A stretch of 64,000 nucleotides of DNA from an uncultured Alphaproteobacteria bacterium (GCA_947054455.1 CAMRWN010000003.1:30681-94680); one strand, 5' to 3'. Numbered from the stretch's first letter, positions 1 through 53,564 are shown. Numbers and translations are program-made. The notes: a model not told the origin generated them from the letters alone.

Positions 1-788
1 TCGCCTGCGATGTCCAGCTGGCCCGCCGTTGACAGCGATTTGGATTTTGTGGTGTTTAACACCTCGCTTATTCCGGCCAGTTTTTGTGCGGAATCGGACG
101 TGTCCTTGGCGGTGGCGGCGGCATATTCGCCGGCGCTGGCGCTCAGCATTGCTTTTACCTCTGCGGCGGTTTTGTTTATGACCTCTATGTTTAGGTCCTT
201 GAAATCCTGAATTTGGTTGGCCGCCTGGCTCAGCGCGCGTTCGCGGGATTGGATTTCATCCAGCCGGGAAGAGCATATGCATCTGCGGTATGTTGGGTTT
301 TGATTTGCGCAGAACTGGTCCATGCATGTGAAATATGCGTCGCGGCACGCGTTGTATCCGGTGCCAAATGTGTTTGACTGGGATGCGGTCATGACGGCGG
401 CGCGCGCGGTTCGCGGGGCGGTTGCGCTGCGCGTGATTGACGATGCAGACGCGCGTTGCGGCGTCGTTGCGGCGCGCGCCGTTGTTGCACTGCGTGCGGC
501 GGTTGCCGATGACGCGGTGCGTGCACCCGTCGCGGTCTTGGACGTGGTTGCGTTGCGCGCGGCAGTTCGCTGCGTGGTTGCACTGCGTGCGGCGGTTGCC
601 GATGACGCTGCGCGCTGGGAAACTGTGTCGGCGGTGGTGCGCGTGGTCGCAACGGCCGGCGCCGCCCGCGGGGATGAGTTTTGCACCGACCCCGCGCTGC
701 GCGCGACAGCCGCGGCGTCGCGAACCGCGGCGCGCGCCGGAACCGTGCACGCAAAGCATGCGATAAAATACAGTAAAAACTTCTTCAT
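1..788 (-). CDS. Giant Cys-rich secreted protein, paralog 1 (N-terminal part only; ORF runs off the window edge)
   Basis: Absent from the supplied ORF track because it has no stop in the window. Hand translation from the ATG at 788 (aagga SD upstream) gives MKKFLLYFIACFACTVPARA (signal peptide), then T/S/A/R-rich repeats, then ...YNACRDAYFTCMDQFCANQNPTYRRCICSSRLDEIQ... This is the same head motif as 1274-3433, 3459-5894 and 30262-33480. The frame stays open down to position 3. Confidence 0.75.
   Translation of the reverse strand, partial: MKKFLLYFIACFACTVPARAAVRDAAAVARSAGSVQNSSPRAAPAVATTRTTADTVSQRAASSATAARSATTQRTAARNATTSKTATGARTASSATAARSATTARAATTPQRASASSITRSATAPRTARAAVMTASQSNTFGTGYNACRDAYFTCMDQFCANQNPTYRRCICSSRLDEIQSRERALSQAANQIQDFKDLNIEVINKTAAEVKAMLSASAGEYAAATAKDTSDSAQKLAGISEVLNTTKSKSLSTAGQLDIAG
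484..608. repeat. 93-bp-period tandem repeat inside paralog 1 (encodes an ASSATAARSATT-containing spacer)
   Basis: The 32-nt string gttgcactgcgtgcggcggttgccgatgacgc occurs at 484-515 and again at 577-608. The offset is 93 nt, or 31 codons. Confidence 0.8.
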
Positions 789-850
789 CCTTGATATAAG
801 TATAATGATATCAAAAATGCGCTTTTAAGGGCAAGGGATATTTCGCATAA

Positions 851-880
851 AAATAAAAATCCCGTCATTATTTTGACGGG
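851..880 (-). terminator. Intrinsic terminator after infA
   Basis: Hairpin cccgtc (861-866) / gacggg (875-880), followed on the minus strand by a U-rich run (plus-strand aaataaaaa). Confidence 0.5.
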
Positions 881-887
881 TTTGAAT

Positions 888-1136
888 TTATTGGTTGGTC
901 TGTTCCGGGGCGGGGCGGTTTCGTTCCACGAACGTTATGCGGCCCTTGTCCAAATCATAGGGCGTCATTTCCACGCGAACCTTTTCGCCAACGTTGACCC
1001 AGATGCGCGCCTTGCGCATTTTGCCGCACACAGTGGCCAAAATTTCATGACCGTTTTCCAGCTTTACGCGGAACATTGTGTTGGGCAGTTTATCTTCTAC
1101 TGTGCCTGTGAATACAATAACATCATCTTTTGCCAT
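888..1136 (-). CDS. infA: Translation initiation factor IF-1
   Basis: [69 protein letters not shown] is a textbook S1-fold IF-1 sequence. Confidence 0.95.
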
Positions 1137-1273
1137 AAATCATCCTTCGGATTTTAATTTCATTGCGTTTATGATATTGCGTATGACAAAAATTGCAAGA
1201 AATTTTTAATATGCTTGCGCAGGGGGGCGACATTTGATAAAATCAAATATAAAATTATGTAGGATGGAAACGC

Positions 1274-3433
1274 ATGAAAATAAAAATATTCGTTATGTTG
1301 TTGTGCATGACGCCGTTGGCGGCGACGGCGGCGGTTCGCGGTTCGGATTCGCGTGTCGGTGTCAACCGCATGGCAATGGCCGGCGTGCGCGGCGGCCCCA
1401 ATTCCAGCGCTGATTTGAATCAGACGACGCAGCCGACAATGACGACGCAACCCGCGGTCAAGGCGCCGTCCGTGCAGGCAAAGCCCGATGAAAGCAATGT
1501 TTCAGGCGGCGCGGATTCGGATAAAGGTACCGTGCCGGCGCCGGGTGTGAACTGTCGCGATGCGTACCGCGCCTGCATGGATGAATTTTGTCTGCTGGAC
1601 GAGTCCGAGGGATACCGCTGTGCGTGTTCCGACAATATCAACAAGTCGAAAAGCCTGATACAGGAAATCCTGAGTTTGCAGGAATCCGCCGACAAGCTGT
1701 ATACAGAAGGCGTGGAGCGTGAAAAACTGGGGGCCAAGGCAAAGCTGGTTTTCGGACAGAGCGAGGCTGCCAAACGCAGCGGCCGCACGTCCGGTGTTAG
1801 TTTTTCCGAATGGCTGAACGCCGATTCCGGCGCACAGGAAGATACGGACGGATTGGGCGCGGACAGCGATATCGGCGCAAATTTGTATGAAATGGCGTCC
1901 GAATATTGCCAGGCTCAACTGGATGCATGCGGCGGGTCTGCCGAAATGGAAAAAGTGCTGTATTCCCGTCAGATTGTTGCGGACTGCAAATCGTTTGACG
2001 CCTATCTGGCCGACCAGAAACGCAACGCAAAGGCAAATCTTAGCACGGCAGAAACTGCGGTTCGCCAGGCACGACTGGAAATGCTGGATACCACGAACAA
2101 ATACAACCGCGGCGAATGTTTGCTGGCGTACAAGGCCTGTATCGCGGACAAGGGCGGATGCGGAACGAATTTTGAAAACTGTCTGGACGAGGCGCTGCTG
2201 ACACGTCGCGCGAACGCGTGTGAAAACGTTTTGGACCAGTGTATGGCGGTGAAAACCGGCGTGCTGGCGGACTGGGCGGATGAATCGCAAACCATTCTGG
2301 CCGATGCGGCGTTATATGCCGACAGAAACAAGCGCGGTACATGTTTGGCGCGAATACAGGTCTGTCTGGAAGATAATTGTTCAATCACCACCAATGCCGC
2401 ATGTTTGACAGATATTAATGTGGCGGCGGGAATATGCCCGGTTATCACCGATTGTGAAGAATTGGTTCCCGGGATCAAGGATGTCGTTAAGAATAATTTG
2501 GGCGCCCTGCGTACGCAGTTCTGCCAGAACGACGTGGACAAATGTTTGCGCGACAAGTGTGGCGACAACTTTACCGCGCCGGAATGCATCGGCAAAAAAG
2601 GAACTGAAATCGCCGCAATGTGTCCCCAGGGTATGTTCCCGTCGTGTCGTAATGAAACACAGTTCGACATAATTGTACAGGCGGCGTTGATGCAGATGGA
2701 TTATAAGTTGATGACGGGATGCCTGAATTATTTCAGCGAGCAGCTGGGCCGTGTTTGCGGTACGGATATGTCGTGTCTGCCACAGGATGAAACGGTTGCG
2801 TCATTGGTTGAATTGCCTGAGGACGGGGCGGGTCTGAAAGCGCTGCGCGAAGAAGTGCGCAAAAATTCAAAGGACGCAGTGGACGAATTCTTCCAGCAGT
2901 TCGAGGTTGATATCACCGTTGCGGCATGCAGCGACAGTCAAAAGCCCGCAGGACAAGATAGTCTGGGCGAAAGCGTGTTTAACAGCGCAAAAATGATTGC
3001 GTATAACGGTGCGGTCCTGCGCGCGGAACGCGAATTGGATGCCAAAATATCCGAATTGTCGCGCAAACAGGATGTGGCCAAGGCAGAGGAAAACTGTTTA
3101 GATACATATGCGGTTGAAACGCCCAAATCAGGTGAAGGCAGCTATAGCTATATCCGCAGCGTTTCGTTTGAACCGTCATTGCGCAACTGCCACGTTTGCC
3201 GTATGCAGCGTGTTTGCGAAACGGGCGGCGAATCCAAGGGCGCGGCGGGGTTAAAGGGCCTGGCCGGCGGATTGTCGGCTGGCGCGGCGGCCGGAACGAT
3301 GGTATCCCCGGGCTGGGGAACTGCGATTGGTGGCGTCATCGCCGGGGTTGGCGGATATTTCGCGGGCCGTGAAGCCGGCGGCGAGCAGGAATTCTGCCAG
3401 GAAATTGAATCCTGTGAAGATATAAACATGTAA
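1274..3433 (+). CDS. Giant Cys-rich secreted protein, paralog 2 (719 aa), with a C-terminal Gly-zipper-like segment
   Basis: Signal peptide MKIKIFVMLLCMTPLAATAA and SD aggatgga. Head motif NCRDAYRACMDEFCLLDESEGYRCACSD lies at nt 1553-1630. I count 36 Cys in the mature protein. The C-terminus reads GAAGLKGLAGGLSAGAAAG...AIGGVIAGVGGYFAG and the protein ends SCEDINM. Confidence 0.85.
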   Translation: MKIKIFVMLLCMTPLAATAAVRGSDSRVGVNRMAMAGVRGGPNSSADLNQTTQPTMTTQPAVKAPSVQAKPDESNVSGGADSDKGTVPAPGVNCRDAYRACMDEFCLLDESEGYRCACSDNINKSKSLIQEILSLQESADKLYTEGVEREKLGAKAKLVFGQSEAAKRSGRTSGVSFSEWLNADSGAQEDTDGLGADSDIGANLYEMASEYCQAQLDACGGSAEMEKVLYSRQIVADCKSFDAYLADQKRNAKANLSTAETAVRQARLEMLDTTNKYNRGECLLAYKACIADKGGCGTNFENCLDEALLTRRANACENVLDQCMAVKTGVLADWADESQTILADAALYADRNKRGTCLARIQVCLEDNCSITTNAACLTDINVAAGICPVITDCEELVPGIKDVVKNNLGALRTQFCQNDVDKCLRDKCGDNFTAPECIGKKGTEIAAMCPQGMFPSCRNETQFDIIVQAALMQMDYKLMTGCLNYFSEQLGRVCGTDMSCLPQDETVASLVELPEDGAGLKALREEVRKNSKDAVDEFFQQFEVDITVAACSDSQKPAGQDSLGESVFNSAKMIAYNGAVLRAERELDAKISELSRKQDVAKAEENCLDTYAVETPKSGEGSYSYIRSVSFEPSLRNCHVCRMQRVCETGGESKGAAGLKGLAGGLSAGAAAGTMVSPGWGTAIGGVIAGVGGYFAGREAGGEQEFCQEIESCEDINM

Positions 3434-3458
3434 TTGTTTTCTTGAGGGAGAGGGAAAC

Positions 3459-5894
3459 ATGACGACAAAAAAAATGGTTTCATTGGCGGTTTGCATGCTG
3501 GCGTCGTTTATGGGCGCTGATGCGGTTGCGGCGGCCGCCAAAAAGCAGTCTGCGATTCAAAGCGGAACATTTGTCCGCACCAAGGTAGAGGCCAAGGGCC
3601 TGTATGACCAGGCATGTTATGACGCATACTATGGCTGCATGGACCAGTTCTGTATTCCCGACAATTCCAACGGCGGCAGCTGTGCCTGCAGCGATGAAAG
3701 CATCGAACTGGAAAAACAGTTTGATGAAATTGAAGCCATTCTGACCGAGGCCGAGCGCATCAGAACCATAGAGGTTGAAAAAGTCAAGGCCGGCGCCCAG
3801 GCGGATATTATATTTACCGGCACGCGCCAGTATGACGAAAACGGCAATGTCATGAATCTGGACGCCGTCAACAACCAGAAAGACAAGGCGCAGAAACGCG
3901 AAAGCCTGCTGGCAATGTGGGATTCAAATTCTTTGGATGTTGACGAAGACATATGGGGCGGCGGCATCGGGGATATCGCAAACAAGACGGGCGGGGCGCT
4001 GTTTTCCGCGGCCGAACAATTATGCGCGGCCCAGATACCGGATTCGTGCGCCAAGGATGTTCAGTTCCTGCGCCAGTTGTATTCCAGACAGATTACATCC
4101 GACTGTCGCGCGTTTGCCAACAGTGTGGATGCAAAAAAATCCGCGGCGGATTTGGAACTGGCCAATGCCAACGCCGATGTGCGCACCGCACTAAAGGAAA
4201 GTTTCGAAGCGGCGAACAAGTATGACCTGGGTACATGCATGGTTGAATTCAAAAAATGCATGCTGACCGATGATGCCTGCGGCAAGGACTGGACGAACTG
4301 CGTGTCTGTTGTTGCATCGGAAAATATGCAGAACAACAAGAGTGCAAGTGTCGCCGGCAGCACAGTAAAAACGGTCGACAAATACGATATCACTGCGTCC
4401 ACGCTGGAAATTATGGATTCCAAGCGCATGATATGCGAACGCGTTCTGGACCAATGCGTGGCGGTGCGCGACATGGTTTGGCCGGCATTCCTGCGCGAAG
4501 CGGCGCCGACCATAAAGGTTGCGGAATCTTCGGCGGAATCAAAATTCCGCCAGTCGTGCCTGACCAGCATATCCAACTGTATACAAAACGCGTGCAAGGA
4601 CGATATTGTCGGCCGCGGTGTTGCGACAATGGATGCCTGTCTGTCGCGTCCGGATATGGCACGTTCTTTCTGCAAGGTGGAAATTGACCCGTGCGAGCGT
4701 ATGGAACCGCTGATTTGGGGATATGTCGTGGACAAGCTGGCCGCGATGCGGGTCGACGCCTGCACCCAGGAGGTCAAGGACTGCTTTACCGATGAAACGC
4801 GTTGCGGGGCCAATTTCCAAAATTGCATAGGCATGGATTACGACTATATTCACGATATATGCCCGATTGACAAACTGGTCGTGTGCAAGGCGAACAAACC
4901 TGATTTTTCAATGGATGATTTGGATTCCATGCTGATGGGACTGTATCTGAATATTGATAATTCCGCACTGGACCAGTGCCAGGAACTGGTGGATCGCAAA
5001 ATGGCTGAAATCTGTGGCAGCACCACTGATTGCAATAAGTTTGCGGCCGACGACACGTTGGGGACCGGCAGTCTGCGTTCTCAAAAGGACGGCAATATAT
5101 ACCGCGTAACGGGCATGATTTCATTCGGTAAAATCAAAATGGGCAGCTCCAGCGGCACCACATTGGATGGAGCAAATGTATTAGGCCCGGGCCAAATCGG
5201 AATTGCGGAGTATCTGGAAAACGTGCGCGAACAAAATACAGACGTTCCTGATGCAGATGCAATAATATCATCTATTGACATGGAACTGAACGATATTGCC
5301 GGCACAATCAACAGAACAATTGAAATGATAGAACAGGATCCGGAAATTCAGTTTTGTGTGAACGGACGCAATCTGTCGCAAATCACCGGACGTAATGAAT
5401 CAACGACGGGGCGTTTCCCGAACCTGCTGAACCAGGTCAAGATGCAGATTGCAAACGCCGCACTGCGCCAAGCCCAGGATAACTATAATGCAAAACTGAG
5501 CGAGGAAGTCGCCAAAGCCACAAAAGATGCATCTGTCGATTTAGCGCAATACATGTGCCAAAAGATTGCACAGGGCAATGCAGTCGTCGGCGCACAATCG
5601 GTCAACACGACCCTGACGGCTCCATATGCGATATCTTATGAGGTAGGGGCAGGATTATCCGCCAAAGACTTAACCAGCGGCGGTCTGGGCCAGACATCGT
5701 TCGTCAGCGATAACGGCAGCGGCATGAGCAAGGAAACAACGGCCCTGTTTAACCGCGACAGCAGAATCTGCCACGTCTGCACCACGACGACCACAACCAG
5801 CTGTAATGTCAAGGGTGCGAACTGGTTCCGCAAGCAGAATGTTGACTGCACCACTGCCAGCGACGGTCCGGTATGCAAAGACATACAGATGTAA
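3459..5894 (+). CDS. Giant Cys-rich secreted protein, paralog 3 (811 aa)
   Basis: Signal peptide MTTKKMVSLAVCMLASFMGADAVA and strong SD gagggagaggga. Head motif ACYDAYYGCMDQFCIPDNSNGGSCACSD. It aligns with paralog 2 (LYSRQITSDCR, NKYDLGTCMVEFKKC, CERVLDQCVAVR) and ends CHVC...VCKDIQM. Confidence 0.85.
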   Translation: MTTKKMVSLAVCMLASFMGADAVAAAAKKQSAIQSGTFVRTKVEAKGLYDQACYDAYYGCMDQFCIPDNSNGGSCACSDESIELEKQFDEIEAILTEAERIRTIEVEKVKAGAQADIIFTGTRQYDENGNVMNLDAVNNQKDKAQKRESLLAMWDSNSLDVDEDIWGGGIGDIANKTGGALFSAAEQLCAAQIPDSCAKDVQFLRQLYSRQITSDCRAFANSVDAKKSAADLELANANADVRTALKESFEAANKYDLGTCMVEFKKCMLTDDACGKDWTNCVSVVASENMQNNKSASVAGSTVKTVDKYDITASTLEIMDSKRMICERVLDQCVAVRDMVWPAFLREAAPTIKVAESSAESKFRQSCLTSISNCIQNACKDDIVGRGVATMDACLSRPDMARSFCKVEIDPCERMEPLIWGYVVDKLAAMRVDACTQEVKDCFTDETRCGANFQNCIGMDYDYIHDICPIDKLVVCKANKPDFSMDDLDSMLMGLYLNIDNSALDQCQELVDRKMAEICGSTTDCNKFAADDTLGTGSLRSQKDGNIYRVTGMISFGKIKMGSSSGTTLDGANVLGPGQIGIAEYLENVREQNTDVPDADAIISSIDMELNDIAGTINRTIEMIEQDPEIQFCVNGRNLSQITGRNESTTGRFPNLLNQVKMQIANAALRQAQDNYNAKLSEEVAKATKDASVDLAQYMCQKIAQGNAVVGAQSVNTTLTAPYAISYEVGAGLSAKDLTSGGLGQTSFVSDNGSGMSKETTALFNRDSRICHVCTTTTTTSCNVKGANWFRKQNVDCTTASDGPVCKDIQM

Positions 5895-12865: not shown

Positions 12866-13447
12866 ATGAAAGTTATTTTGACAGAAAAAATCAACAAGCT
12901 GGGCAACATTGGCGACACGGTTGAGGTAAAGACCGGTTTCGCGCGCAACTATCTGTTGCCGAATTCCAAGGCTATGCGCTGGACACGTGAAAACGTTGCG
13001 CTGTTCGAAGCGAAAAAGGCGGAACTGGTTGCGCGTCAGGAAGCGGCCAAGAAATCGGCGGAAAAGAATGTCGATGCGGTCAAGAACGCGAAACTGCACA
13101 TGATTCGCCAGGCGGGCGACACGGGCCAGCTGTATGGTTCCGTATCCACACGCGATATCGCGCGCATGCTGAAAGAAGTTGCGAATATCGCGGTTGATTC
13201 CGCACAGGTCATGCTGGGCAGCCCGATTAAGTCCATCGGTGCGTTTGATACAAAAATCGCGTTGCATCCGGACGTCATTGTTCCGGTAAAGGTTTTTGTC
13301 GCGCAGACCCAGGACGAAATTGAAGCGTTGGTTGCGGGCAAGGTTCTGACATTCGGCACCAAAAAGGTCGAAGAAGAAGTCGAAGAACCGGTCGCGGCGG
13401 AAAAATCTGAAGAGAAATCCGAAGAAAAGGCCGCTGACGCGGAATAA
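12866..13447 (+). CDS. rplI: 50S ribosomal protein L9 with an acidic/Lys-rich C-terminal extension
   Basis: MKVILTEKINKLGNIGDTVEVKTGFARNYLLP matches L9. The tail reads KKVEEEVEEPVAAEKSEEKSEEKAADAE. Confidence 0.92.
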   Translation: MKVILTEKINKLGNIGDTVEVKTGFARNYLLPNSKAMRWTRENVALFEAKKAELVARQEAAKKSAEKNVDAVKNAKLHMIRQAGDTGQLYGSVSTRDIARMLKEVANIAVDSAQVMLGSPIKSIGAFDTKIALHPDVIVPVKVFVAQTQDEIEALVAGKVLTFGTKKVEEEVEEPVAAEKSEEKSEEKAADAE

Positions 13448-13469
13448 TCATCCGTTTTTCGGTATAAAA

Positions 13470-13496
13470 ATCCCTGCAATTGCGGGGATTTTTTTA
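13470..13496 (+). terminator. Intrinsic terminator after rplI
   Basis: atccctgc-aatt-gcggggat hairpin followed by a T7 run. Confidence 0.75.
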
Positions 13497-13533
13497 TAAA
13501 CTTTTGCAATATTGGTGGTTATAATAACAACAA

Positions 13534-14187
13534 ATGAAACTGGAATCCGATGGTATTTTGATAGGTCTGCGGCCGCTGGGCGAGCGCGATTCGATTGCGC
13601 TGGTGTTCACACGCGAATTTGGACTGATGCGCGGTGTGATGCGCGCCGCGCAAATAGCCAAAAAAAACCGACCGCTGGTGGGGCAGGTCGGCGCGGCGGC
13701 ATGGAATGCGCGTCTGGATTCGCAGCTTGGGGCCTTTCACTGGGAGGCGGAAAAAAACCTGGCCGCGCCGTTGATGATGGATCGTGCAAGACTGGGGATT
13801 ATGAATTCCGCCTTTGCACTGATTGGCGCAATGCTGCCGGAACGCGAATGCTATCGGATGCTGTATTCGCAGACGCATGAAATGCTGCGGGCGGTCGGCA
13901 CCGGCGGCGGCGCGGCGGCATATCTGGCGTGGGAGATAAATTTGCTGCGCGAATTGGGATATGCGCTGGATTTGTCGCGTTGTTCGGGATGCGGGGCGAC
14001 GACGGATTTGTGTTATTTGTCGCCGCGAACCGGGCGTGCGGTTTGCCGCGAATGCGGGGCGCCGTATTCCGACCGATTATACCATATGCCCGTCGGATTG
14101 GATACGACAATGCATTTTGTCGCCAACGCATGCGCACAGCAGGGTATTGATATACCCGCGGCCAGAAAGTATCTGGCGGGTTTATAA
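13534..14187 (+). CDS. recO: DNA repair protein RecO
   Basis: N-terminal OB-fold sequence (GILIGLRPLGERDSIALVFTREFGL) and a Cys4 zinc motif (CSGCG...CRECG). Confidence 0.85.
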   Translation: MKLESDGILIGLRPLGERDSIALVFTREFGLMRGVMRAAQIAKKNRPLVGQVGAAAWNARLDSQLGAFHWEAEKNLAAPLMMDRARLGIMNSAFALIGAMLPERECYRMLYSQTHEMLRAVGTGGGAAAYLAWEINLLRELGYALDLSRCSGCGATTDLCYLSPRTGRAVCRECGAPYSDRLYHMPVGLDTTMHFVANACAQQGIDIPAARKYLAGL

Positions 14188-14270: not shown

Positions 14271-15092
14271 ATGACTTGGACAATACTTGTTCTGGTGCTG
14301 GCGATTGCTCTGTATTTGTTCGGCGGCATGCTGCTGCAGAATAACGGCAAGAAACCATCAACAGCTGTTAGCATGGGTAAAAAATCAATTCAATTGATTT
14401 CGATTTTATTGGTCGCGGGCTGTGTATGCCGCCTGTTTGTACCGTATTATCTGACATCGGTAAAGCCTGAAATCGTTCAGGAAATGGTCGAAGGTGTTCA
14501 GAGAAAACAAAACGAGGAAAAGAACAAGGTCATTCGCAGCTATGTTCGTTCCAAGGTTGACACGATGATTGCCGATGCCCCGATTATGGGCGCCCAGGAC
14601 GCTAAAAAGACGATTTTTGTATGGACGGACTTTTCCTGCCCGTATTGCCGTCGCGTACATGGCGAACTGGAACGTGTATTGGATGCGCGCAATGACGTTC
14701 GCGTTGTTGTAAAGAACTTTTCTATCCATGGCCCGTTGTCGGATGCGCCGGCCAAGGCCGTTATTGCCGCAAAACTGCAGAGTCCTGAAAAAGCGGGCGA
14801 ATTGGTCAAAATGCTGATGAACCGCAATTATTATTCCCAGGATGATTTGCAGGACCAGGCAAAAATCGGCGAAAAGATTGAAAAGAATGTCATGAAAATG
14901 GCACAGGAAGCCGGTTTGGATACCGCGCAATTGAAGAAGGACATGAACGGCGAAGTTGTCGCACGTGAAATGGCCAATGTTCGTGATTTGGCCCAGCGCT
15001 TTGAAATCAGTGGTACACCGTTCCTGATTATCGGTGAACAGGCGTTCCCGGGTGCGATTCCGTATTCCCAGATTATCAAAGCGTTGAACTAA
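14271..15092 (+). CDS. Membrane-anchored DsbA-family thiol:disulfide oxidoreductase
   Basis: N-terminal TM segment. The thioredoxin-fold active site is WTDFSCPYCRRVH, and the C-terminus carries GTPFLIIGEQAFPGAIPY. Confidence 0.8.
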   Translation: MTWTILVLVLAIALYLFGGMLLQNNGKKPSTAVSMGKKSIQLISILLVAGCVCRLFVPYYLTSVKPEIVQEMVEGVQRKQNEEKNKVIRSYVRSKVDTMIADAPIMGAQDAKKTIFVWTDFSCPYCRRVHGELERVLDARNDVRVVVKNFSIHGPLSDAPAKAVIAAKLQSPEKAGELVKMLMNRNYYSQDDLQDQAKIGEKIEKNVMKMAQEAGLDTAQLKKDMNGEVVAREMANVRDLAQRFEISGTPFLIIGEQAFPGAIPYSQIIKALN

Positions 15093-28216: not shown

Positions 28217-29476
28217 TTACCGCACTGCCGTTGCTGTAGGCGGGTTGTAGTGTAGATTTTTATTTGACGGCAGCGTGAAACAATTAGTTCCGTTATCGGT
28301 GCAGAATTTTGTGCCACCCGTGCCGGGCACCATGATGCAGTCTTTGATTGACTCCTTTCCTGCGCCGTCCGTTGTCGCGCCCAGCGGACATGGGTGCGGG
28401 CCGTTATCATCACAGTAATACCCTTTGGGGCAATCACCAATGATTGCTATTAGTTTAAGCTTTGGTGGCGAAGCCAGGTCTTTGTCTTTATCCGGGAAAT
28501 TTGACATGATTTTTGTGTCTATGTCGTCGGTTAGTGATAGTTTTTTTTGTGAATCATCGTCTATATGGTCGCACCCTTCAAAACAATACCAAAAGTCAAA
28601 ATATTTTCCTTTATCAGCTGGCAAATCTGTTTTGTTTGGCTCCCGCACCGGGCAAGATTGATCGATTGTGCAAGTTTGCAGCATATATGTGCTGTTGTCA
28701 TCTTCCTTATAATAATATTCTACCGTGTATGAGGCGGGTTCCCATTGCGCATACAGGGTTGTTTCCGGGGTGGTAAATGTGCAGGCATTTATGCCTGCTT
28801 CGCGACGTCCTAGCACGTTAAAATACTTTGTGCCGCCGGTGGCTTCGGTAAAATATCCGGTAAATTTTTTTGACCAATTTGGATTTTCTGGGATTGAATC
28901 CGCTCCAGGATCTTGCTTCCAGCCATCTGAACCCGATGGATCATTAGTGTATGAAAAACCATTCATGCAATATGCCCACCATTCTTTCTGGGTATTGTCG
29001 CCGCGATTTCTTTTTAATATGATTTTGACAGGTACAGGTGTGCAATAAGTGTATTCTGATGTCTCCGGAGTTAGAGGGTCGTCTGGGAAGTCGCCATTCC
29101 AATAATTTTCGCCGTCAAATCTTATGGTTGTCGCAGGCGCCCATTCATTTCCGGCACATGGAACGCAGCCTAATTTCCCATCAACCTTATGTTTTTCGTT
29201 GCATGATATTGTCCATGGACAATTATCTGCAGCGGTTCCAGGGCCGGTCGCCGTGGCGCCGTTTGGTATATTGGTACAGGACTCGCATTTATTGTCTTTG
29301 GCATATTGGCCATTGGCGCAAGGAATACATCCCAGAGTCGTATATATACAATGATTATCCCGGCAGGATTGTTCCGAATCGTTGAATTGTGCGCAATTAT
29401 CAACCCACGCTGTCGCGCAATTTATGGAAAAAGTTAAAAATGCAATGAATATAATTTTTTTCATTCTCAAAATCAT
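28217..29476 (-). CDS. Cys-rich secreted protein with furin/GCC2-GCC3-like Cys modules and Listeria-Bacteroides-type repeats
   Basis: Signal peptide M(ILRM)KKIIFIAFLTFSINCATA; the start is at 29476 or 29464. Cys modules are CIPCANGQYAKDNKCESC...GATATGPGTAADNC and CPKGYYCDDNGPHPCPLGATTDGAGKESIKDC. The central FTGYFTEATGGTKYF....TTLYAQW / YTVEY fits the List_Bact repeat pattern. The track N-terminus runs through a terminator. Confidence 0.65.
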   Translation of the reverse strand: MILRMKKIIFIAFLTFSINCATAWVDNCAQFNDSEQSCRDNHCIYTTLGCIPCANGQYAKDNKCESCTNIPNGATATGPGTAADNCPWTISCNEKHKVDGKLGCVPCAGNEWAPATTIRFDGENYWNGDFPDDPLTPETSEYTYCTPVPVKIILKRNRGDNTQKEWWAYCMNGFSYTNDPSGSDGWKQDPGADSIPENPNWSKKFTGYFTEATGGTKYFNVLGRREAGINACTFTTPETTLYAQWEPASYTVEYYYKEDDNSTYMLQTCTIDQSCPVREPNKTDLPADKGKYFDFWYCFEGCDHIDDDSQKKLSLTDDIDTKIMSNFPDKDKDLASPPKLKLIAIIGDCPKGYYCDDNGPHPCPLGATTDGAGKESIKDCIMVPGTGGTKFCTDNGTNCFTLPSNKNLHYNPPTATAVR

Positions 29477-29502
29477 GCTAGAAAAACGGGTGGGCAAAAG
29501 CA

Positions 29503-29529
29503 ATAAAAAAAATCCGGTTGAAACCGGAT
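29503..29529 (-). terminator. Intrinsic terminator after the lipoprotein gene
   Basis: tccggtt/aaccgga hairpin flanked by A and T runs. Confidence 0.65.
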
Positions 29530-29532
29530 TTT

Positions 29533-29976
29533 TTATTTTTGTTTTTGATATTTTTTGTTGATTGTCCAACCTTGCTGTGTAAGCCACAGGCTGTCGGACG
29601 GGACCTTTGCCGCTTCGCCCAGTTTAAAATTAAAATCGCCACGCCCACGAAGTTTAGGAGACATTTTAATACGTGGCCGCATAAAATTATCACAAAAAAA
29701 AGCAATATTTTCTGAGAGGGCTCTATCCCAATCTCCTTCCGCAACCATATATATAGATTCGACGGATGGGTCATTGATATATTGTTGTAATATTTCAATC
29801 GACAGTCTTTCATCACCGGTAGTAACTGTAAACGGCAGTTCAACATCGTGTTTCGGGCCGGTGTAAGGCTTTTCGTTTTCTATTTTTTTACATGCCGGCA
29901 ACAATGTCGCCCCCGCCAGGGCCAGCATCGGCACCGCCTTTTTTATGTTATACGGAAAAATCTTTTTGAATTGCAT
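29533..29976 (-). CDS. Lipoprotein of unknown function (147 aa)
   Basis: The ATG at 29976 is preceded by aaggag. Signal peptide with lipobox: MQFKKIFPYNIKKAVPMLALAGATLLPAC. The longer track ORF (to 30123) has no SD. Confidence 0.65.
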   Translation of the reverse strand: MQFKKIFPYNIKKAVPMLALAGATLLPACKKIENEKPYTGPKHDVELPFTVTTGDERLSIEILQQYINDPSVESIYMVAEGDWDRALSENIAFFCDNFMRPRIKMSPKLRGRGDFNFKLGEAAKVPSDSLWLTQQGWTINKKYQKQK

Positions 29977-30261: not shown

Positions 30262-33200
30262 TTATTTGGCGACCGGGCTATAGTCAACCATCCATTTTGT
30301 TTTGTATAGTGCATTTGTTCCATTTTTATCCAAATATGGGCATTTTTCGAAGCGAACAAATCTCCATGCGTCGCTTTTCTCAGCTTTTTCTGCCGTTATT
30401 TTGCATGTATTCTGTTCGCCGTTTGCGGATTTAGGCTTGTATTGGAACGATAACAGCGGATTGCTGGTCTGGGGATTTGTCGATGTTGGCGGTGTCAAAT
30501 AACGATATGAGCCATTTCCTATGCTAAACAGTATGTATTGGCCGTCGCACTGTACGGTTTTCCCAGATGGATAATTTGCATCTTCTGTCGTTGCATTTTC
30601 CGTTCCGTGTGGTGCCGTATCGCTTAGGCAATACAGGTAATTATAAGCAGGGATACTATCCTCGTATTCGGTTTTGGGAGTTATATATACATATGACACA
30701 ACAAAGTGCATGTTGTGGCTGTTGGCATTGGCCGGCACGCAAAATTTTATTTTTTTATCCGATGTTTGTAGGGTACCAAAGTAATCGGTTATGCTTGTGC
30801 TCAAATTAGTCTCTATTACTCCATTCGTACAGCAATTGCCCATGCTGTCCAGTTCGCCGGCCGTGCCGTCCGCCTTGATGCAGCAGTTTTCCAAATAATA
30901 ATCATTAAATACCGACGGCGGGTTTGAATTTATTTTTTCATAATCGGCGCTGCATGCCTGGCCGTCGCCCTTGGATACCATTGAATCCGGTACGCAAACC
31001 AATGCGCCGTTGCTGTCAATGCTGGATACAAAGCCGATTCCGCAGCTGGTGTCGCGGCAGCTGTCATCGCGGTTCTGGGTGCCTGTATTGACCGCAAACC
31101 ATGACAACAATGTCGATGTGGAAGAATCAACCGGCGTGCGGATGCGGTTGTGGCTGCCCGCGCTGTTAAGCTGTTTGTCGGATGATACCTCGCAGTTGCC
31201 CCACAGGCTTTCCGACAGGCGGCACACCTTGCACTGGTGTGAATTCGGCTGCTGGCATTCGGTGGTGCAAATGTCATGGACGCAGTTCATTGCGATTACT
31301 TTTCCGTTTTCGTCGCGCAGCGGACGCAGTTCGCACGACTGTGTGGTGTCGGATTCAGCATACGTGGTCTGGGGGGCGTTTGTTATTTCCGGCGGCGGCG
31401 TTTTGCCGTACAACTGGCCATAGAAGGAGTTTGTGCCGGCATCCAGCAGGCCGCGTTTGTCCAGTTGCGCCATTATGTTGCTGATTGCCTCTTCGCCCGC
31501 GCTGTCGACACAGTTTTTAACCTCGTTCCAGCAGGCCGAGCGGTTGATTATCGATTTGCGGTTGACCGATGTCTGGATGTTTTCACACAGACCGAAATTG
31601 CCGGAAATAGATTTGCATGCCTGGATGATGCAGGCGCGTCCAACCTCGCGGCAGGTCTGCATGATGGTTTCATACGTGGTGTCTGTCGCGATTTCGGTCA
31701 TGCCGCCAATCCATTCGTCCGCGCCGCCGCCCGTCGATTCCAGCAGCGCCGTGCATGCCATGCGCACATCGGCGCACATCGCGTTTACCGTCTTGTTTGC
31801 GTCGACGCCGAACGTTGACAGCGCGCGCGCGTCAAAGTCGGCCAATGATTTTGCCGTCTCGGACAGGCACTGGGTGGTCAGTGTGGTGCAGCTTTGGCGC
31901 ATTGTTTCCAGTTTGTCGTCCTGGGCCAGTTTTATCTGCGCCAGCGCGTCTTCAATAAATTCATCCCATACGTAATCGGAAATATCCTGGCAGTTTTCCA
32001 TCGCCGGGGCCAAAAACTTTTTCTTGGAATTCAGAAAAGATACGAACGTGTCGTTGCCGGGCGCGGTTGTCCATGTCTGGCCGGCGTCGGGGCGTTTTAT
32101 CAGATTGGCCAGATTCGCCAGTTCCACCGTCAGGAACGCTTCGCCGGTCGACGGGTCTATGTATCGGCCCGACGTGTCCAGACACTTGGTCAAATCAGTG
32201 CCGCAAACCGAAGAATCCGTCAGCATGTCCAGCATCTTCTTTTTGCAGGTCAATATGTCGTCCGAATTGCGCTTTTGATATATGTCCAGACGCGACATGT
32301 CCAGCAATGCGCCGCCTTCGCGCAGTTTTTCGCGCGCCTGGTCGGTCTGGGTCTGGTACGATTTGGCGACGGTGTTGCAGTCCTGTTCGATTGTCATCTG
32401 GTATCCGCTTTCCGCGATAGCCAGTTCATCTTCGCTGCAAACCTCTTGCGCCATTTGGCGGCATACCGGCAGGGCGGCTGAATACAGGGCGGTTCCGCTT
32501 TTGCCGGTGGTTGATGCCCCCAGCATCGAATCGACGCTGTCGAATGCGGCGTCTGCGTTCAGCGACCACGACAGCGATGACAGGTTGGTGTCAAAATTAC
32601 TGCTGTCAAAGCTGGTGTTTAGCTTCTTGGCGATTTCATCCAGCATCTTTTTTGATGCGGACGTGTCTTTTTGATTGAACGCCTGTTCACCCTCGGTCGC
32701 TTTGAACAATGCATCTGCGTCTTCCTTGTCCATGTTGACGGTCAGCAGACGTTGGTTGAAATCCAGCATTTTTTCTTCAACATCGGACAGTTGCCGCTTG
32801 TATTTGTCAAATTCGTTTGCACGGGACGAACATGCGCAACGCCGCAGCTGTGCATCCTTGTTCGCGCAAAATTCATCCATGCAGTCGTAATACACCTCGC
32901 GGCATTTGGAATAGTTTTTGGATATTACGTCTTCACGGGTCAGGGCGGCGCTGCGTGCGATTTGCGTGGCGCCCGCGCGTGATGTGGTGGCGGCCCGCGA
33001 CGGGGTTCTGGATGTTGTGGCGGTGCGCGATGTAGCCGTGCGCGTGGCCGCGCGCGATGCGGTTGCGTGGGATGTTGTGGCGGTGCGCGACACTGTTGCA
33101 CTGGGGCGCGATGCGGCGGTTCGTGCGGTGGTGGAATTGGTTTGCGTCGCGCGTGATTGAACGCCGGCAGCGGTTCGTGCGGCCACGCCCGTGGATGCGG

Positions 33201-33480
33201 CGCGATTTTCAGTTCTTATCACGACCGCGTTGCCGCGCGGGCTGGTATCGGTGGCGCGTTCGCGCACGGACGGCGCGGCGCCGGTCTGGTTTGTCGCGCG
33301 CGAAACCGTTGTCGGGGCGGTGGTGTCTGCGTTGCCGGTTTTCTGGCGTGAAGATACGACAACGCCGGCCGCAGTACGGCGCGCGGCGGCGCGCGCGGCG
33401 TCCGCTGCATCTTCTGCATGCGCGCCCCAAAACGCAAGCGGGGCAAGGCATGCAGCCAAAATCAGCTTGATTCCTTTCAT
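30262..33480 (-). CDS. Giant Cys-rich secreted protein, paralog 4 (1072 aa)
   Basis: Signal peptide MKGIKLILAACLAPLAFWGAHA. About 170 aa of T/S/A/R-rich repeats follow. Head motif KCREVYYDCMDEFCANKDAQLRRCACSS. A long Cys-paired region follows, and the AT-rich 3' third encodes a distinct Cys-rich C-terminal region. Confidence 0.85.
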   Translation of the reverse strand: MKGIKLILAACLAPLAFWGAHAEDAADAARAAARRTAAGVVVSSRQKTGNADTTAPTTVSRATNQTGAAPSVRERATDTSPRGNAVVIRTENRAASTGVAARTAAGVQSRATQTNSTTARTAASRPSATVSRTATTSHATASRAATRTATSRTATTSRTPSRAATTSRAGATQIARSAALTREDVISKNYSKCREVYYDCMDEFCANKDAQLRRCACSSRANEFDKYKRQLSDVEEKMLDFNQRLLTVNMDKEDADALFKATEGEQAFNQKDTSASKKMLDEIAKKLNTSFDSSNFDTNLSSLSWSLNADAAFDSVDSMLGASTTGKSGTALYSAALPVCRQMAQEVCSEDELAIAESGYQMTIEQDCNTVAKSYQTQTDQAREKLREGGALLDMSRLDIYQKRNSDDILTCKKKMLDMLTDSSVCGTDLTKCLDTSGRYIDPSTGEAFLTVELANLANLIKRPDAGQTWTTAPGNDTFVSFLNSKKKFLAPAMENCQDISDYVWDEFIEDALAQIKLAQDDKLETMRQSCTTLTTQCLSETAKSLADFDARALSTFGVDANKTVNAMCADVRMACTALLESTGGGADEWIGGMTEIATDTTYETIMQTCREVGRACIIQACKSISGNFGLCENIQTSVNRKSIINRSACWNEVKNCVDSAGEEAISNIMAQLDKRGLLDAGTNSFYGQLYGKTPPPEITNAPQTTYAESDTTQSCELRPLRDENGKVIAMNCVHDICTTECQQPNSHQCKVCRLSESLWGNCEVSSDKQLNSAGSHNRIRTPVDSSTSTLLSWFAVNTGTQNRDDSCRDTSCGIGFVSSIDSNGALVCVPDSMVSKGDGQACSADYEKINSNPPSVFNDYYLENCCIKADGTAGELDSMGNCCTNGVIETNLSTSITDYFGTLQTSDKKIKFCVPANANSHNMHFVVSYVYITPKTEYEDSIPAYNYLYCLSDTAPHGTENATTEDANYPSGKTVQCDGQYILFSIGNGSYRYLTPPTSTNPQTSNPLLSFQYKPKSANGEQNTCKITAEKAEKSDAWRFVRFEKCPYLDKNGTNALYKTKWMVDYSPVAK
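33010..33090. repeat. 60-bp-period repeat inside paralog 4 (encodes an RTATTSR-type spacer)
   Basis: ggatgttgtggcggtgcgcga occurs at 33010-33030 and again at 33070-33090. Confidence 0.75.
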
Positions 33481-33721: not shown

Positions 33722-35227
33722 ATGAGAAAAGTACCACAGTTCCTTTTTAGATGCTCGCTGGCGGCGTTGATGCCGGTGGCGGCGAATGCAGCCGGAACAT
33801 ACTATACCGGTAATTACCAGTCGCCGCAGTCGCGATATACTCAAAAAAATTATACGAACTATAATCAGAATTCAACCTATGCGCGAAATGTTGGCTATAC
33901 TATGCCGGGTGCCGCACGTTCCGGCAACACTGTGGTCGGTCAGTCCAGAACCCAGGTGGCCCAGCCGCGCGCGCCGCAACAGACCGCCGCGTCGTCTTCT
34001 TCGAAAAAGGGCTTCTTTGTAGATGCCGGTTTGTCCCATGAAGTTGCACAGTGGCAGTTCGAAATGAAGGAATCCGGGTCTATTCTGCATTATGACAATA
34101 TTGGTTGGAACGTGTTTGATGTAAAGGGCGGGTACGCTTTTAATGTCGGCAATACGAACCTGCAATTGGATGCGGGATTTAAATATGGAATGCAGTCCGG
34201 TGATTCCACAATGGTTGACGACGATATTACAAACGGCGGATATTTTATAACACAGTGGGTAAAGGACGATGCCGACAAAACCATAATCGGCGAACAAATC
34301 GGACATTCCTTGTCTGTGGGCAGCAGCAGCGACGGCAACATGCTGGGGTTCAATATAGGCCTGGGGCTGACTGATTTCTTTAAATGGGGAAATGTGAAGT
34401 TCACGCCGTCAATCGGGTATCGTTATTTGAAATACAAATTGGAAACAAAAAACAATTATGGGCTGTCCGTTGATACGGCCGCGTGTTTCCGCATAGATGG
34501 CAGCGATGAAATCCAGTGCGATCCGGCAATCATCGTGAATTATGGCAGCGGCGACCAAACATGGCAGCAGATTTTGTGGCGCGACAAACTGACGGACAAG
34601 CTGCAGGTGGTCGATGCCGCGGATATAAAATTCATTGATACCGGCGGCACGTATTACTATCAGCAGCCGGGAACCAGCCATTCGTACGAGGTTGAATGGA
34701 CCGGGCCGTATATCGCCATGGACATGGTATATGACATAAACAAAAACAACGCCGTCAACGGGCGTGTTGAACTGGGCTTCCCGGGGTATTCGGCCACCGG
34801 CGACCAGCCGTATCGCTTTGACTGGCAGCATCCCAAGAGCGTCGAGGACAAGGCAGATATGTTTTCAGCCATGCACGTCGGGCTGGGTGCGAATTGGACA
34901 ACGGCAATAACTGACATGGTGTCATTTTCGCTGGGGCTGACATATGACTATTATAACGTCAGCGGCGCGGATGCAAAAACATATCTGAACGGGGGATACT
35001 ATATCGACATTTATAACGATTTGCTGTCCCAGTGGGCGCAAAAATATCCGACCAATACGGAACAGCACATGCTGGGCCAGATTGAAGGCGTGGCCGGCGA
35101 CCCTCTGGCCATAAATATCAAGGATTTGGAGGCATCATGTCCGGGATGGGTATGTTCCAGCAACGGTGAAATAGAATCGTTTTACAAATCAATTGGCGTG
35201 CGCGTCGGTATAAATGCGAAATTCTAA
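33722..35227 (+). CDS. Large outer-membrane beta-barrel protein (501 aa), family unknown
   Basis: Signal peptide ...AALMPVAANA, then a Q/N/Y-rich linker and an amphipathic strand pattern. The C-terminus reads ...GVRVGINAKF. Confidence 0.7.
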   Translation: MRKVPQFLFRCSLAALMPVAANAAGTYYTGNYQSPQSRYTQKNYTNYNQNSTYARNVGYTMPGAARSGNTVVGQSRTQVAQPRAPQQTAASSSSKKGFFVDAGLSHEVAQWQFEMKESGSILHYDNIGWNVFDVKGGYAFNVGNTNLQLDAGFKYGMQSGDSTMVDDDITNGGYFITQWVKDDADKTIIGEQIGHSLSVGSSSDGNMLGFNIGLGLTDFFKWGNVKFTPSIGYRYLKYKLETKNNYGLSVDTAACFRIDGSDEIQCDPAIIVNYGSGDQTWQQILWRDKLTDKLQVVDAADIKFIDTGGTYYYQQPGTSHSYEVEWTGPYIAMDMVYDINKNNAVNGRVELGFPGYSATGDQPYRFDWQHPKSVEDKADMFSAMHVGLGANWTTAITDMVSFSLGLTYDYYNVSGADAKTYLNGGYYIDIYNDLLSQWAQKYPTNTEQHMLGQIEGVAGDPLAINIKDLEASCPGWVCSSNGEIESFYKSIGVRVGINAKF

Positions 35228-36833: not shown

Positions 36834-36857
36834 CGCCCCGCATGCGGGGCGTTTTTT
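36834..36857. terminator. Bidirectional intrinsic terminator
   Basis: cgccccg-catg-cggggcg hairpin followed by a T6 run, between convergent genes. Confidence 0.7.
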
Positions 36858-45146: not shown

Positions 45147-45767
45147 GTGATATATGGCTACATCCGTGTCTCTACAGACCATCAGACAACCGAAAATCAG
45201 CGGTTTGAAATACAAAAATTTTGTGAAAAACAGGATTTGGTCATTGACTGCTGGATAGAAGAGACGATTTCCGCCACCAAGGATTTAAATAAACGCAAAC
45301 TGGGCCGTCTGATAAAGCGCATTCAGCGCGACGATATGATAATTGCGTCGGAATTGTCGCGTCTGGGGCGCAATTTACTGCAGATTATGAGCATTTTGCA
45401 TCATTGCATGGATGTGGGGGCGAAAATCTGGACAATCAAGGACAATTATAGACTGGGGTCCGATATAACAAGCAAAGTTTTGGCGTTCGCATTCGGATTA
45501 TCTGCCGAGATTGAGCGCAATTTGATTTCCCAGCGCACCAAAGAGGCGCTGGCGCGGGTAAAGTCCGAAGGAAAACACATCGGCCGTCCCCACGGCAGCT
45601 GTAATATGTGCAAGCTGCAGGGGCGCGAACGCTATATATCCCAAAAGCTGGGCAGCGGCAGCAGCAAATATGAAATCGCGCGACGACTGCGCGTGCATCG
45701 CGACACGCTGAGTCGTTTTATAGAAATGAAAGGAATTTTGCCCGTCGATTCCGACCCGTGCCGCTAG
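45147..45767 (+). CDS. Small serine recombinase (resolvase/invertase family)
   Basis: GTG start after aaggag. The catalytic motif is YGYIRVSTDHQ, followed by a resolvase core and a C-terminal HTH (SKYEIARRLRVHRDTLSRFIE). Confidence 0.85.
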   Translation: MIYGYIRVSTDHQTTENQRFEIQKFCEKQDLVIDCWIEETISATKDLNKRKLGRLIKRIQRDDMIIASELSRLGRNLLQIMSILHHCMDVGAKIWTIKDNYRLGSDITSKVLAFAFGLSAEIERNLISQRTKEALARVKSEGKHIGRPHGSCNMCKLQGRERYISQKLGSGSSKYEIARRLRVHRDTLSRFIEMKGILPVDSDPCR

Positions 45768-47578: not shown

Positions 47579-47803
47579 ACTATTATATATAGTACGAAAA
47601 TTCGCTTTGTCAATAGGTAGGGTAAAGTTTTTGTCAATTTTATATAATGTATACTTTGTACTTGATTTTTTTCGTGTGGTGCTATATTATGGCGGTACGC
47701 GCCAAGCGCGAAGAACACAACCGTTATGCAAGATTTCTGTCCAAAAAATATTTTTTGGTCTGTGGCATACGGCGAGGATAATAACAGAAAAAAGGATAAA
47801 AAA

Positions 47804-48655: not shown

Positions 48656-48782
48656 TAATTTGCATCGCGGGTCGCCCGCATGAAAGTTATCATAAAATGC
48701 GGTGATGCGCGCGGACGAAACCTGATTTCGGTCGCGCGCGCAACGCAATTAAACAACAATTAAAATTATGGGAGAAAACACA

Positions 48783-49652: not shown

Positions 49653-49675
49653 TTCATATTGGCGCATTATTAAAA

Positions 49676-53261: not shown

Positions 53262-53283
53262 GTTTTTCTCTTTTGTGTTTGCG

Positions 53284-53385
53284 TTCTGCCTGATCCAAAC
53301 CACCGTTTGCGGTGGTGTTTTTTTTATTTTTTTGTTTTCCCGGTTTTCCGGGATTTTTATCCGCCTGATTCTGCCTAATCCAAAC
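53284..53385. repeat. 17-nt direct repeat pair plus two hairpins in the Fic/ctpA intergenic region
   Basis: ttctgcctgatccaaac (53284-53300) and ttctgcctaatccaaac (53369-53385). Between them lie accacc-gtttgc-ggtggt followed by a T8 run, and tcccgg-tttt-ccggga followed by a T5 run. Confidence 0.6.
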
Positions 53386-53564
53386 GGTGGTTTGGATTTA
53401 GTGGTAAAAAGGTGGTTCCTTATAAGTATTTTATAGTACATAAAATAAAGTTTGTCAATAGCTTGTCCCAAAAATTTAATAAATGTATGAAAATCGCGCT
53501 TGCGGTGGTCGTCCTTTTGTTTTATGGTATTTTCATACATTATATATGCATAAAAGGAAAGGGC

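Follow-up and report, generated by a model that had tools for sequence, protein, structure and literature searches.

What is a family of giant, cysteine-rich and apparently exported proteins doing in a gut bacterium of a lineage whose genomes measure less than 1 Mb? The question is raised by a 64,000-nucleotide stretch of DNA from an uncultured alphaproteobacterium (GCA_947054455.1 CAMRWN010000003.1:30681-94680; hereafter ‘the window’, with positions counted from its first nucleotide). The source genome is a Candidatus Enterousia metagenome-assembled genome (MAG) from the gut; Enterousia, within the order Rs-D84, is reported to have genomes of <1 Mb, to lack a respiratory chain, to possess an incomplete glycolysis and probably to depend on a partner (PMC12306168). 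A sequence-only reading had taken a set of such proteins at the start of the window for a lineage-specific surface or host-interaction system, made of multi-copy and diverging members. We find that four paralogs, here called A to D, belong to a family that is new at the level of sequence and of fold, the latter in comparison with PDB and BFVD, and that they are old, syntenic core genes, not recently diverged copies. We infer for the family the function and location of a disulfide-braced cell-envelope or surface scaffold with variable tips, a reading to which we give about even weight.

The four paralogs share a ‘head’ motif, C-x3-Y-x2-CMDxFC-x9-CxCS. In a six-frame scan of the window, a regular expression for this motif, applied to open reading frames (ORFs) of at least 100 amino acids, gave a single occurrence in each of the four proteins (starting at residues A148, B94, C53 and D193) and none in any other scanned ORF. 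Paralog A (1-788, minus strand) is partial at the window edge, with the N-terminal 262 amino acids alone in view: a signal peptide, a spacer of 125 residues, the head motif (residues 148-173, 270-347, minus strand; CRDAYFTCMDQFCANQNPTYRRCICS) and the start of the helical region; full-length candidate orthologs of A in other genomes mostly measure ~830-975 amino acids. Paralog B (1274-3433, plus strand) is a 719-residue protein, conserved along its entire length, with its head motif at residues 94-119 (1553-1630, plus strand; CRDAYRACMDEFCLLDESEGYRCACS). Directly beyond it lies C (3459-5894, plus strand; 811 amino acids), which carries the motif at residues 53-78 (3615-3692, plus strand; CYDAYYGCMDQFCIPDNSNGGSCACS) and finishes in CKDIQM. 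Paralog D (30262-33480, minus strand) has 1072 amino acids, with the motif at residues 193-218 (32827-32904, minus strand; CREVYYDCMDEFCANKDAQLRRCACS). Thus, as had been read from the sequence, three of the first four genes are family members—the remaining one being infA—and a fourth copy, on the minus strand, is found in the D ORF, all four sharing the same motif.

Both B and C contain 37 cysteines, 36 of them in the mature protein, reproducing for B the even count previously given for the 719-residue protein; D has 43, of which 42 are mature. The tandem pair aligns by BLASTP over ~490 amino acids (2e-49, 27% identity), and the LYSRQI.., NKY..G.C and C..VLDQC.AV blocks by which B and C had been judged alignable all fall inside this alignment; B and D align over ~250 amino acids (2e-10). 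The gap between B and C is 25 bp, C is preceded by a GAGG ribosome-binding site of its own, and the scan lists no terminator-like site on the plus strand downstream of position 918; given the short gap and the lack of such a site, the two genes are probably co-transcribed.

Searches against known families and folds returned nothing that would place these proteins. At E<=1, A, B, C and D gave only noise against Pfam and NCBIfam (best 15.7 bits, against a cut-off of 388 bits); 50 diverse family members had no Pfam match at E<=0.001, and sub-regions searched against Pfam at E<=10 yielded solely the sub-threshold glycine-zipper match described below. Neither an autotransporter nor a YadA-anchor domain was matched by profile in A-D, and Sel1 and TPR profiles found nothing in A-D or in the 50 diverse members. 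No toxin, enzyme or pore-forming domain was seen in those 50 members with Pfam, nor by fold search, and no metal-binding family was matched in Pfam or NCBIfam. PDB sequences searched with profiles A1, A3 and A4 gave no match below E 0.26. At the level of structure, the best Foldseek hit for a model of B had E 0.22 in PDB (TM<=0.2) and E 0.07 in BFVD, with TM-scores across the two databases of <=0.31 and mostly <=0.2, and a model of D residues 640-1072 had no match (best E 0.57). A phage origin found no support either: PHROGs matched the glycine-rich segment of B and nothing else in the family, and a tblastn search with C against 50,697 phage records gave no match. The sequence-only reading had seen no enzymatic or adhesin motif and no family that it could name, and no confident profile or structure match has emerged here from Pfam, NCBIfam, the PDB profiles or Foldseek; it is because there is no detectable sequence or fold relative that we rate the family as new. 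No description of it was found in the literature searched. Its biological role may nonetheless be a familiar one, the family adding a further example of cysteine-rich surface proteins.

The relatives that do exist come from one lineage. A 90%-clustered database holds at least 980 relatives of B, those with names all being ‘hypothetical protein’ of Alphaproteobacteria or Pseudomonadota MAGs, and the same is true of D, with a single exception, a MAG labelled Muribaculaceae. When 1.84 billion representatives were scanned exhaustively with HMMER, the family resolved into 435 clusters at 50% identity. In a one-genome-per-species collection 297 relatives were found, of which the 80 loci listed were analysed: all 80 lie in MAGs from the guts of human, chicken, ruminant, vole or termite, which carry the labels Candidatus Enterousia, uncultured Alphaproteobacteria, uncultured Rickettsiales or something looser. 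The claim of lineage specificity therefore stands, with relatives restricted to a gut alphaproteobacterial MAG lineage and no known family matched. Related genomes hold additional C-like paralogs (L087 6979-13480; L083 80-6720; L082 2101-5142), for instance as a divergently transcribed pair of 969 and 1159 amino acids between rpsB-tsf and rplQ-rpoA, and the copy number per genome is for that reason probably greater than four. Locus L087 also contains cysteine-rich ORFs that lack the head motif (472 amino acids with 23 cysteines; 690 amino acids with 27).

Paralog B gives the clearest view of the architecture. Its AlphaFold2 model (mean predicted local distance difference test score, pLDDT, 77.6; core blocks mostly 85-97) is all-alpha with a 3-stranded C-terminal sheet, and is disordered at residues 13-90, model and sequence together marking residues ~21-93 as a disordered spacer. 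Working from here towards the C-terminus, the head motif sits on a helix (residues 94-106) that is followed by the CxC; two long helices come next (122-160 and 220-274), then helical hairpins up to ~residue 510, and then more helices. Residues 94-510 (1553-2803, plus strand) make up an alpha-helical cysteine-ladder core in which pLDDT is mostly >85, 25 cysteine columns are invariant and the ratio of non-synonymous to synonymous substitution rates (dN/dS) is 0.034. An i,i+7 spacing of cysteines dominates within the predicted helices, with C-x6-C-x4-C at B94, B357 and B417 and C-x6-C-x6-C-x6-C at B282; by this spacing, the head motif has the same C-x6-C-x4-C helix pattern as two later modules of B. 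The match of residues 276-330 to 412-462 supports an internal duplication (hhalign probability 94%, E 1e-7). The idea that the head motif is itself a copy of this repeat was set aside as weakly supported (hhalign 42% against B276-330).

In the model, the strands of the C-terminal sheet (residues 624-651 and 705-718) enclose a glycine-rich hydrophobic segment (residues 655-701; 3236-3376, plus strand), a candidate membrane-inserting element. Residues 662-701 align to nearly the whole of Gly-zipper_Omp (PF13488, Rickettsia 17-kDa antigen / SlyB-like; model positions 2-42 of 46), with E 0.0025 and a score of 18.2 bits that lies below the 25-bit cut-off. Unlike the glycine-zipper lipoproteins, however, the segment comprises ~6% of B, is absent from C and D and goes with no canonical-length lipoprotein signal, and the similarity may come from Gly/Ala-rich composition alone. 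Membrane association of B through this glycine-zipper-like segment is accordingly a possible property, suggested by its sequence. In PHROGs the same segment weakly matches (E 0.002-0.05) phage tape-measure proteins and an endolysin in their hydrophobic, glycine-rich parts; these matches are probably compositional.

The cysteines themselves behave as pairs. The 25 invariant columns hold in an alignment whose members are 21-71% identical to B, and cysteine counts for the mature protein are even in 111/120 orthologs of B, 99/118 of D, 109/112 C-like proteins and 90/99 diverse representatives—that is, in 84-97% of members—and step by two (34/36/38/40; 42/44/46). Among the diverse representatives, specific cysteines are lost together by substitution: B94-219, 289-316, 357-394, 369-377, 424-450, 495-501 and 648-708. 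Combined with the secondary structure, these co-lost pairs suggest nested ladders that would clamp a helix to its return segment, with putative rungs in B at 357-394, 364-388 and 369-377, at 417-458, 424-450 and 429-438, and at 282-323, 289-316 and 296-303; in each ladder the middle or outer rungs are seen through co-loss and the remaining rungs are placed by nesting. The even counts point to nearly complete disulfide pairing, and parity together with pairwise loss favours disulfides within the molecule rather than intermolecular cross-links. Cysteine makes up 4-5% of the proteins, with one conserved CxxC (CHVC in B and C, CKVC in D).

Are these genes, then, the diverging copies that they had been taken for? 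The gene order A(-) infA(-) B(+) C(+) is retained in ~72 of the 80 species loci, and a particular variant of the head motif is diagnostic for each paralog. The synteny of D is kept as well, in the order alpha-2-macroglobulin, PBP1C, a DUF3078-like outer-membrane protein, a 204-residue ORF, a Pom-like outer-membrane protein, D, a small ORF, E, Pth and PolA. Since orthologs can be followed for every paralog separately, in conserved synteny, through ~80 species, the paralogs are not recently diverging copies. Orthologs of B and of C both have a median identity of 66% to the window proteins, as compared with 63% for MscS, 64.5% for BOF and 74% for OmpA. Strain-level dN/dS, calculated by the Nei-Gojobori method from one closely related strain pair per gene, is 0.073 for the whole of B and 0.119 for the whole of C, with most neighbouring genes at 0-0.13, PBP1C at 0.23 and the 204-residue ORF at 0.30. 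B and C are thus under strong purifying selection between strains and, together with the helical cores, belong to the more constrained part of the neighbourhood. With hundreds of orthologs and dN/dS well below 1, these are genuine genes. The description ‘multi-copy, diverging’ cannot be kept: the A-infA-B-C block is fixed, and B and C evolve no faster than MscS and BOF.

Paralog D behaves otherwise, and in a strikingly regional manner. Its dN/dS is 0.37 overall, made up of 0.84 in the spacer, 0.023 in the helical core (residues 193-700) and 0.51 in the C-terminal region (residues 701-1072; dN 0.091). The spacer (residues 23-192; 32905-33414, minus strand) is polycationic and disordered, A/T/S-rich with 14% arginine and a net charge of +17; its sequence is poorly conserved, the charge being kept in orthologs (median +16, never <+8). 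The conserved cysteine-ladder core runs to residue 700 (31381-32826, minus strand) and, between species, retains 69-85% identity per 50-residue bin up to residue 650. The variable C-terminal region (30265-31380, minus strand) is modelled as beta-rich from ~residue 815 (pLDDT 81.9 for the model of residues 640-1072), as a soluble-looking domain with no barrel match; beyond residue 850 the last 220 residues are 11-27% identical between species, and residues 851-1072 account for 57 of the 79 differences between strains in D. A resembles D where the two can be compared. Its 125-residue spacer is likewise polycationic (net +14) and A/T/S/R-rich, as against a neutral spacer in B and a short one in C, and the C-terminal part of A-type orthologs is also hypervariable, in a set chosen by a loose head-motif pattern that includes some C-type proteins. 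B and C, by contrast, are conserved to their ends, which read CEDINM (B type) and CEDIxM (C type). The paralogs hence fall into two evolutionary classes, B/C and A/D. Tandem Repeats Finder (TRF) detected no significant DNA tandem repeats in the spacers, excluding contingency repeats; the spacers are not recent DNA repeats.

The N-termini of the family are signal-peptide-like with AxA sites, as read by eye; in B, a basic start is followed by a hydrophobic stretch and an ATA|A site. Together with the even cysteine counts and paired loss, this upholds the description of these proteins as exported and disulfide-rich. A cysteine stands at signal-peptide position 11 or 12 in A, B, C and D, within the context LAAC, lipobox-like, in D (signal-peptide starts including this residue: A 788-756, minus strand; B 1274-1309, plus; C 3459-3494, plus; D 33480-33448, minus). 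We considered and rejected a lipoprotein as the principal interpretation: the hydrophobic stretch before the cysteine is only ~6 residues, too near the N-terminus for a canonical lipoprotein signal; the hydrophobic region runs on beyond it to a clear AxA site at ~residue 20; and Cys11, present in ~150 of the ~390 family proteins retrieved, is missing from many members, with 147 having no cysteine at all within the first 30 residues.

A candidate oxidant for the family is encoded at 14271-15092 (plus strand), where the membrane-anchored DsbA-like thiol:disulfide oxidoreductase that had been pointed out nearby is borne out: its thioredoxin-fold product scores 68.7 bits against PF01323 (DSBA; cut-off 25.6), has CPYC at its active site and a hydrophobic anchor at its N-terminus, and finds only sub-threshold DsbC/DsbG-like matches in NCBIfam. 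The protein has two N-terminal hydrophobic segments, the second with a CVC motif (..LLVAGCVCRLF..).

How might these features fit together? In the scaffold reading, each protein would be exported by its Sec-type signal peptide and oxidised in the periplasm, presumably by the nearby CPYC enzyme. As parity and paired loss suggest, essentially all cysteines would then sit in disulfides—18 in B and C, 21 in D—and nested ladders (1-6, 2-5, 3-4) would clamp helical hairpins, the head motif supplying the C-x6-C-x4-C helix that comes first and is conserved best. The result would be a scaffold of mostly alpha-helical character, rigid and resistant to proteases. Members of the B/C class are conserved end to end, finishing in a small beta-sheet with a C-E/K-D-I-x-M terminus, and the glycine-zipper-like hydrophobic segment of B could sit in a membrane; in those of the A/D class a long polycationic disordered spacer precedes a helical core of extreme conservation, and the C-terminal domain is hypervariable. 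The conserved, disulfide-braced helices may serve as stalk or lattice, with the variable domains of A and D facing outside and contacting a partner cell, host material or phage; outward exposure is proposed because variability of this kind is typical of regions that come up against hosts, partners, antibodies or phages, and a role in outside contact would fit an organism that is predicted to depend on other cells. The envelope character of the surroundings also counts towards this reading (the DsbA-like enzyme, Pom-like and other outer-membrane proteins, OmpA, LptB/C, PBP1C and alpha-2-macroglobulin). Surface location and host interaction are what we infer from all this. The host-interaction signature that had been claimed for the family as a whole survives in part: it is present in the hypervariable C-termini of D (dN/dS 0.51) and of the A-type orthologs, and in the strain-variable neighbour E described below, and is lacking in B, C and the helical cores.

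Several points weigh against the scaffold reading. Its disulfide connectivity is drawn from co-loss and parity, and some of the co-loss events are probably single phylogenetic events. The signal peptides were read by eye, and each strain-level dN/dS comes from a single strain pair; in the C-terminus of D, moreover, dS is 0.18 as against 0.07 in the core, which suggests recombination, able to inflate the apparent diversification. The window contains no DsbB or VKOR, and the lineage is reported to lack a respiratory chain, which leaves a DsbA system with no obvious terminal oxidant. The literature searched holds no transcript, proteome or localisation data for the family. Finally, profile searches and the N-termini revealed no autotransporter barrel, canonical-length lipobox or known sorting signal; since nothing beyond the Sec signal explains how a protein of 80-115 kDa would cross the outer membrane, a purely periplasmic location is possible.

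That last point makes a periplasmic or sub-outer-membrane lattice, comparable to the cysteine-rich outer membrane complex of chlamydiae, the main rival: the envelope would be stiffened by disulfide cross-links, and the proteins would have no outward role as adhesins. We consider this possible, if doubtful. The Sec signal alone was found, with no device for outer-membrane translocation; B and C are conserved like housekeeping genes; the DsbA-like enzyme is close by and a Pom-like porin lies beside D; the spacers of A and D, being polycationic, could bind lipopolysaccharide or peptidoglycan; and the lineage has a reduced genome. However, peptidoglycan synthesis is present (PBP1C in the window, with MreB, RodA and MrdA reported for the lineage; PMC12306168), so that no substitute for a wall is needed; the hypervariable C-termini of D and A are hard to explain if buried; and even cysteine counts with paired loss indicate intramolecular disulfides, not free cysteines available for cross-linking. 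Nor is there similarity to any Pfam family, where the chlamydial cysteine-rich envelope families are presumably modelled, and the core is alpha-helical in our model. If instead the outward-facing variability were taken as the rule for all parts, broadly as in the sequence-only reading, the family would be an antigenically variable, fast-diverging multigene system for host interaction, its copies all exchangeable and under diversifying selection. There are indeed several paralogs per genome, with further C-like pairs elsewhere in related genomes; the C-terminus of D and protein E vary strongly between strains; and the gut habitat exposes cells to immunoglobulin A and phage pressure. One-to-one orthologs for each paralog in fixed synteny across ~80 species, dN/dS of 0.07-0.12 in B and C and 0.023 in the core of D, and the lack, within the genes and around them, of DNA tandem repeats and of evident switching elements nonetheless make this improbable, and largely refute it for B, C and the helical cores.

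Two further alternatives concern what the exported proteins would do. They could be soluble effectors or toxins, released against neighbouring microbes or host cells and stabilised in the gut lumen by their many disulfides, as signal peptides and a lifestyle predicted to be partner-dependent or parasitic (PMC12306168) would allow. Yet a toxin, enzyme or pore-forming domain was detected neither in the 50 diverse members nor by fold search, the neighbourhood contains no dedicated secretion system or immunity gene, effectors are not typically conserved as strongly as B and C and the glycine-zipper-like segment of B suggests retention in a membrane, so we hold release to be decidedly improbable. 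Their cysteines, at 4-5% and with one conserved CxxC, could alternatively serve metal binding or redox chemistry (metallothionein-like or Fe-S-like) in place of structural disulfides. Against this, the signal peptides place the proteins in an oxidising compartment, counts are even and step by two, loss occurs in specific pairs, the i,i+7 spacing in helices is unlike the clustered CxxC or CxC of metal sites and no metal-binding family is matched; the chance of its being right is, in our view, close to negligible.

Comparison with known systems helps to place the scaffold reading. Like the family, chlamydial OmcB and OmcA are large, exported, cysteine-rich envelope proteins of a reduced-genome, host-dependent Gram-negative that need periplasmic disulfide formation. 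OmcB is beta-rich, and its basic N-terminal region, which binds anionic host glycans, offers a loose analogy to the polycationic spacers that A and D possess; in addition, a homolog of a Protochlamydia-type Pom porin adjoins D. The differences are the missing sequence similarity (no Pfam match), the alpha-helical core of the model, cysteines apparently paired within the molecule and not mainly between molecules, and an organism that keeps its peptidoglycan synthesis genes. The Hcp proteins of Helicobacter (Sel1-like repeat) are secreted alpha-helical repeat proteins of a gut-associated bacterium, encoded by a multigene family, in which short-range cysteine pairs staple helix pairs, and share with our proteins the principle of disulfide-stapled, secreted helices in a multigene setting. 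The family nevertheless has no Sel1 or TPR match and no Foldseek match in PDB, where solved Hcp structures are presumably deposited; its members are 3-5 times larger, have a cysteine pattern of three-rung nested ladders where Hcp has one disulfide per repeat, and possess extra spacers and variable domains. In design principle, D and A, with their conserved core and hypervariable C-terminus, resemble the Plasmodium DBL domains, trypanosome VSG and Giardia VSP, all of which combine a conserved cysteine-stabilised scaffold with a variable exposed part, in multiple copies, in a protease-rich host; there is no detectable similarity of sequence or structure, and the paralogs here are few, syntenic and orthologous, unlike those large switching repertoires.

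The remainder of the window is, as had been said of it, otherwise dense in housekeeping genes (infA, L9, RecO, ClpB-like, PolA, Pth, TyrRS, PFOR), with the addition of the envelope genes LptB/C, OmpA and PBP1C. Two genes from D in conserved synteny lies E (28217-29587, minus strand), a protein with 25 cysteines and no head motif, and the most strain-variable gene measured (75% amino-acid identity and dN/dS 0.59 against related locus L084). It has a weak ephrin-receptor-like cysteine-repeat match (E 0.015) and is a possible associated surface protein, outside the family; homology of E with the C-terminal domain of D was looked for and none detected. On the other side, the Pom-like beta-barrel outer-membrane protein (33722-35227, plus strand; Pfam Pom, 37.7 bits against a 22.4-bit cut-off) divergently adjoins D in all three related loci examined; Pom is a Protochlamydia outer membrane protein family, a chlamydia-type porin family that is odd for an alphaproteobacterium. 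Beside the D locus, conserved there and kept in a genome of <1 Mb, an alpha-2-macroglobulin of 1916 amino acids is paired with PBP1C (36856-44968, minus strand), the classic periplasmic ‘defence and repair’ gene pair.

Elsewhere, a serine resolvase stands beside a convergent subtilase (S8), with a Fic-domain protein a few genes away (45147-47578, 52539-53540); together these perhaps form a small island, mobile or accessory, amid the housekeeping genes. Between rplI (L9) and recO, a related strain (L086 11119-12829) has two extra genes that are missing from the window at 13447-13534, one for a 379-residue protein with a weak Eco57I-like match and the other a 196-residue ORF, in what looks like a strain-specific restriction-modification insertion. 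Two apparently cysteine-rich ORFs at 47687-48748 and 48690-49667 (both minus strand) were discarded as R/F-rich antisense translations of the plus-strand genes 47726-48655 and 48768-49652.

What would the scaffold mean for the organism? Candidatus Enterousia and the order Rs-D84 occur widely in the guts of humans, livestock, birds and termites and are presumed to live off other cells, and ~1% or more of a <1 Mb genome is devoted to these conserved giant proteins; the family is abundant and lacks annotation, and the gut lineage that harbours it is uncultured and enigmatic. Their design is distinctive, with long helices, predicted nested three-rung disulfide ladders and some ~18-21 disulfides per chain, and has no detectable relative in Pfam, NCBIfam, PDB or BFVD. 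At its most ambitious, the reading would see in the paralogs the building set of a bacterial surface architecture not seen before, in which B/C and tip-bearing A/D subunits form disulfide-laddered alpha-helical stalks with exchangeable hypervariable binding domains that attach an ultra-small, non-respiring alphaproteobacterium to its partner cell, with the corollary that a strict anaerobe without a respiratory chain runs oxidative folding at high capacity (>75 disulfides for these four proteins) towards an unknown electron acceptor; this extension is speculative and rather unlikely. The family does in any case raise the question of how DsbA is re-oxidised in a fermentative anaerobe that has no respiratory chain. 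As core genes, two of them with hypervariable ends, A-D are the best current candidates for the envelope or contact apparatus of Enterousia, and may offer handles—as antigens, for fluorescence in situ hybridisation or as enrichment targets—towards its isolation.

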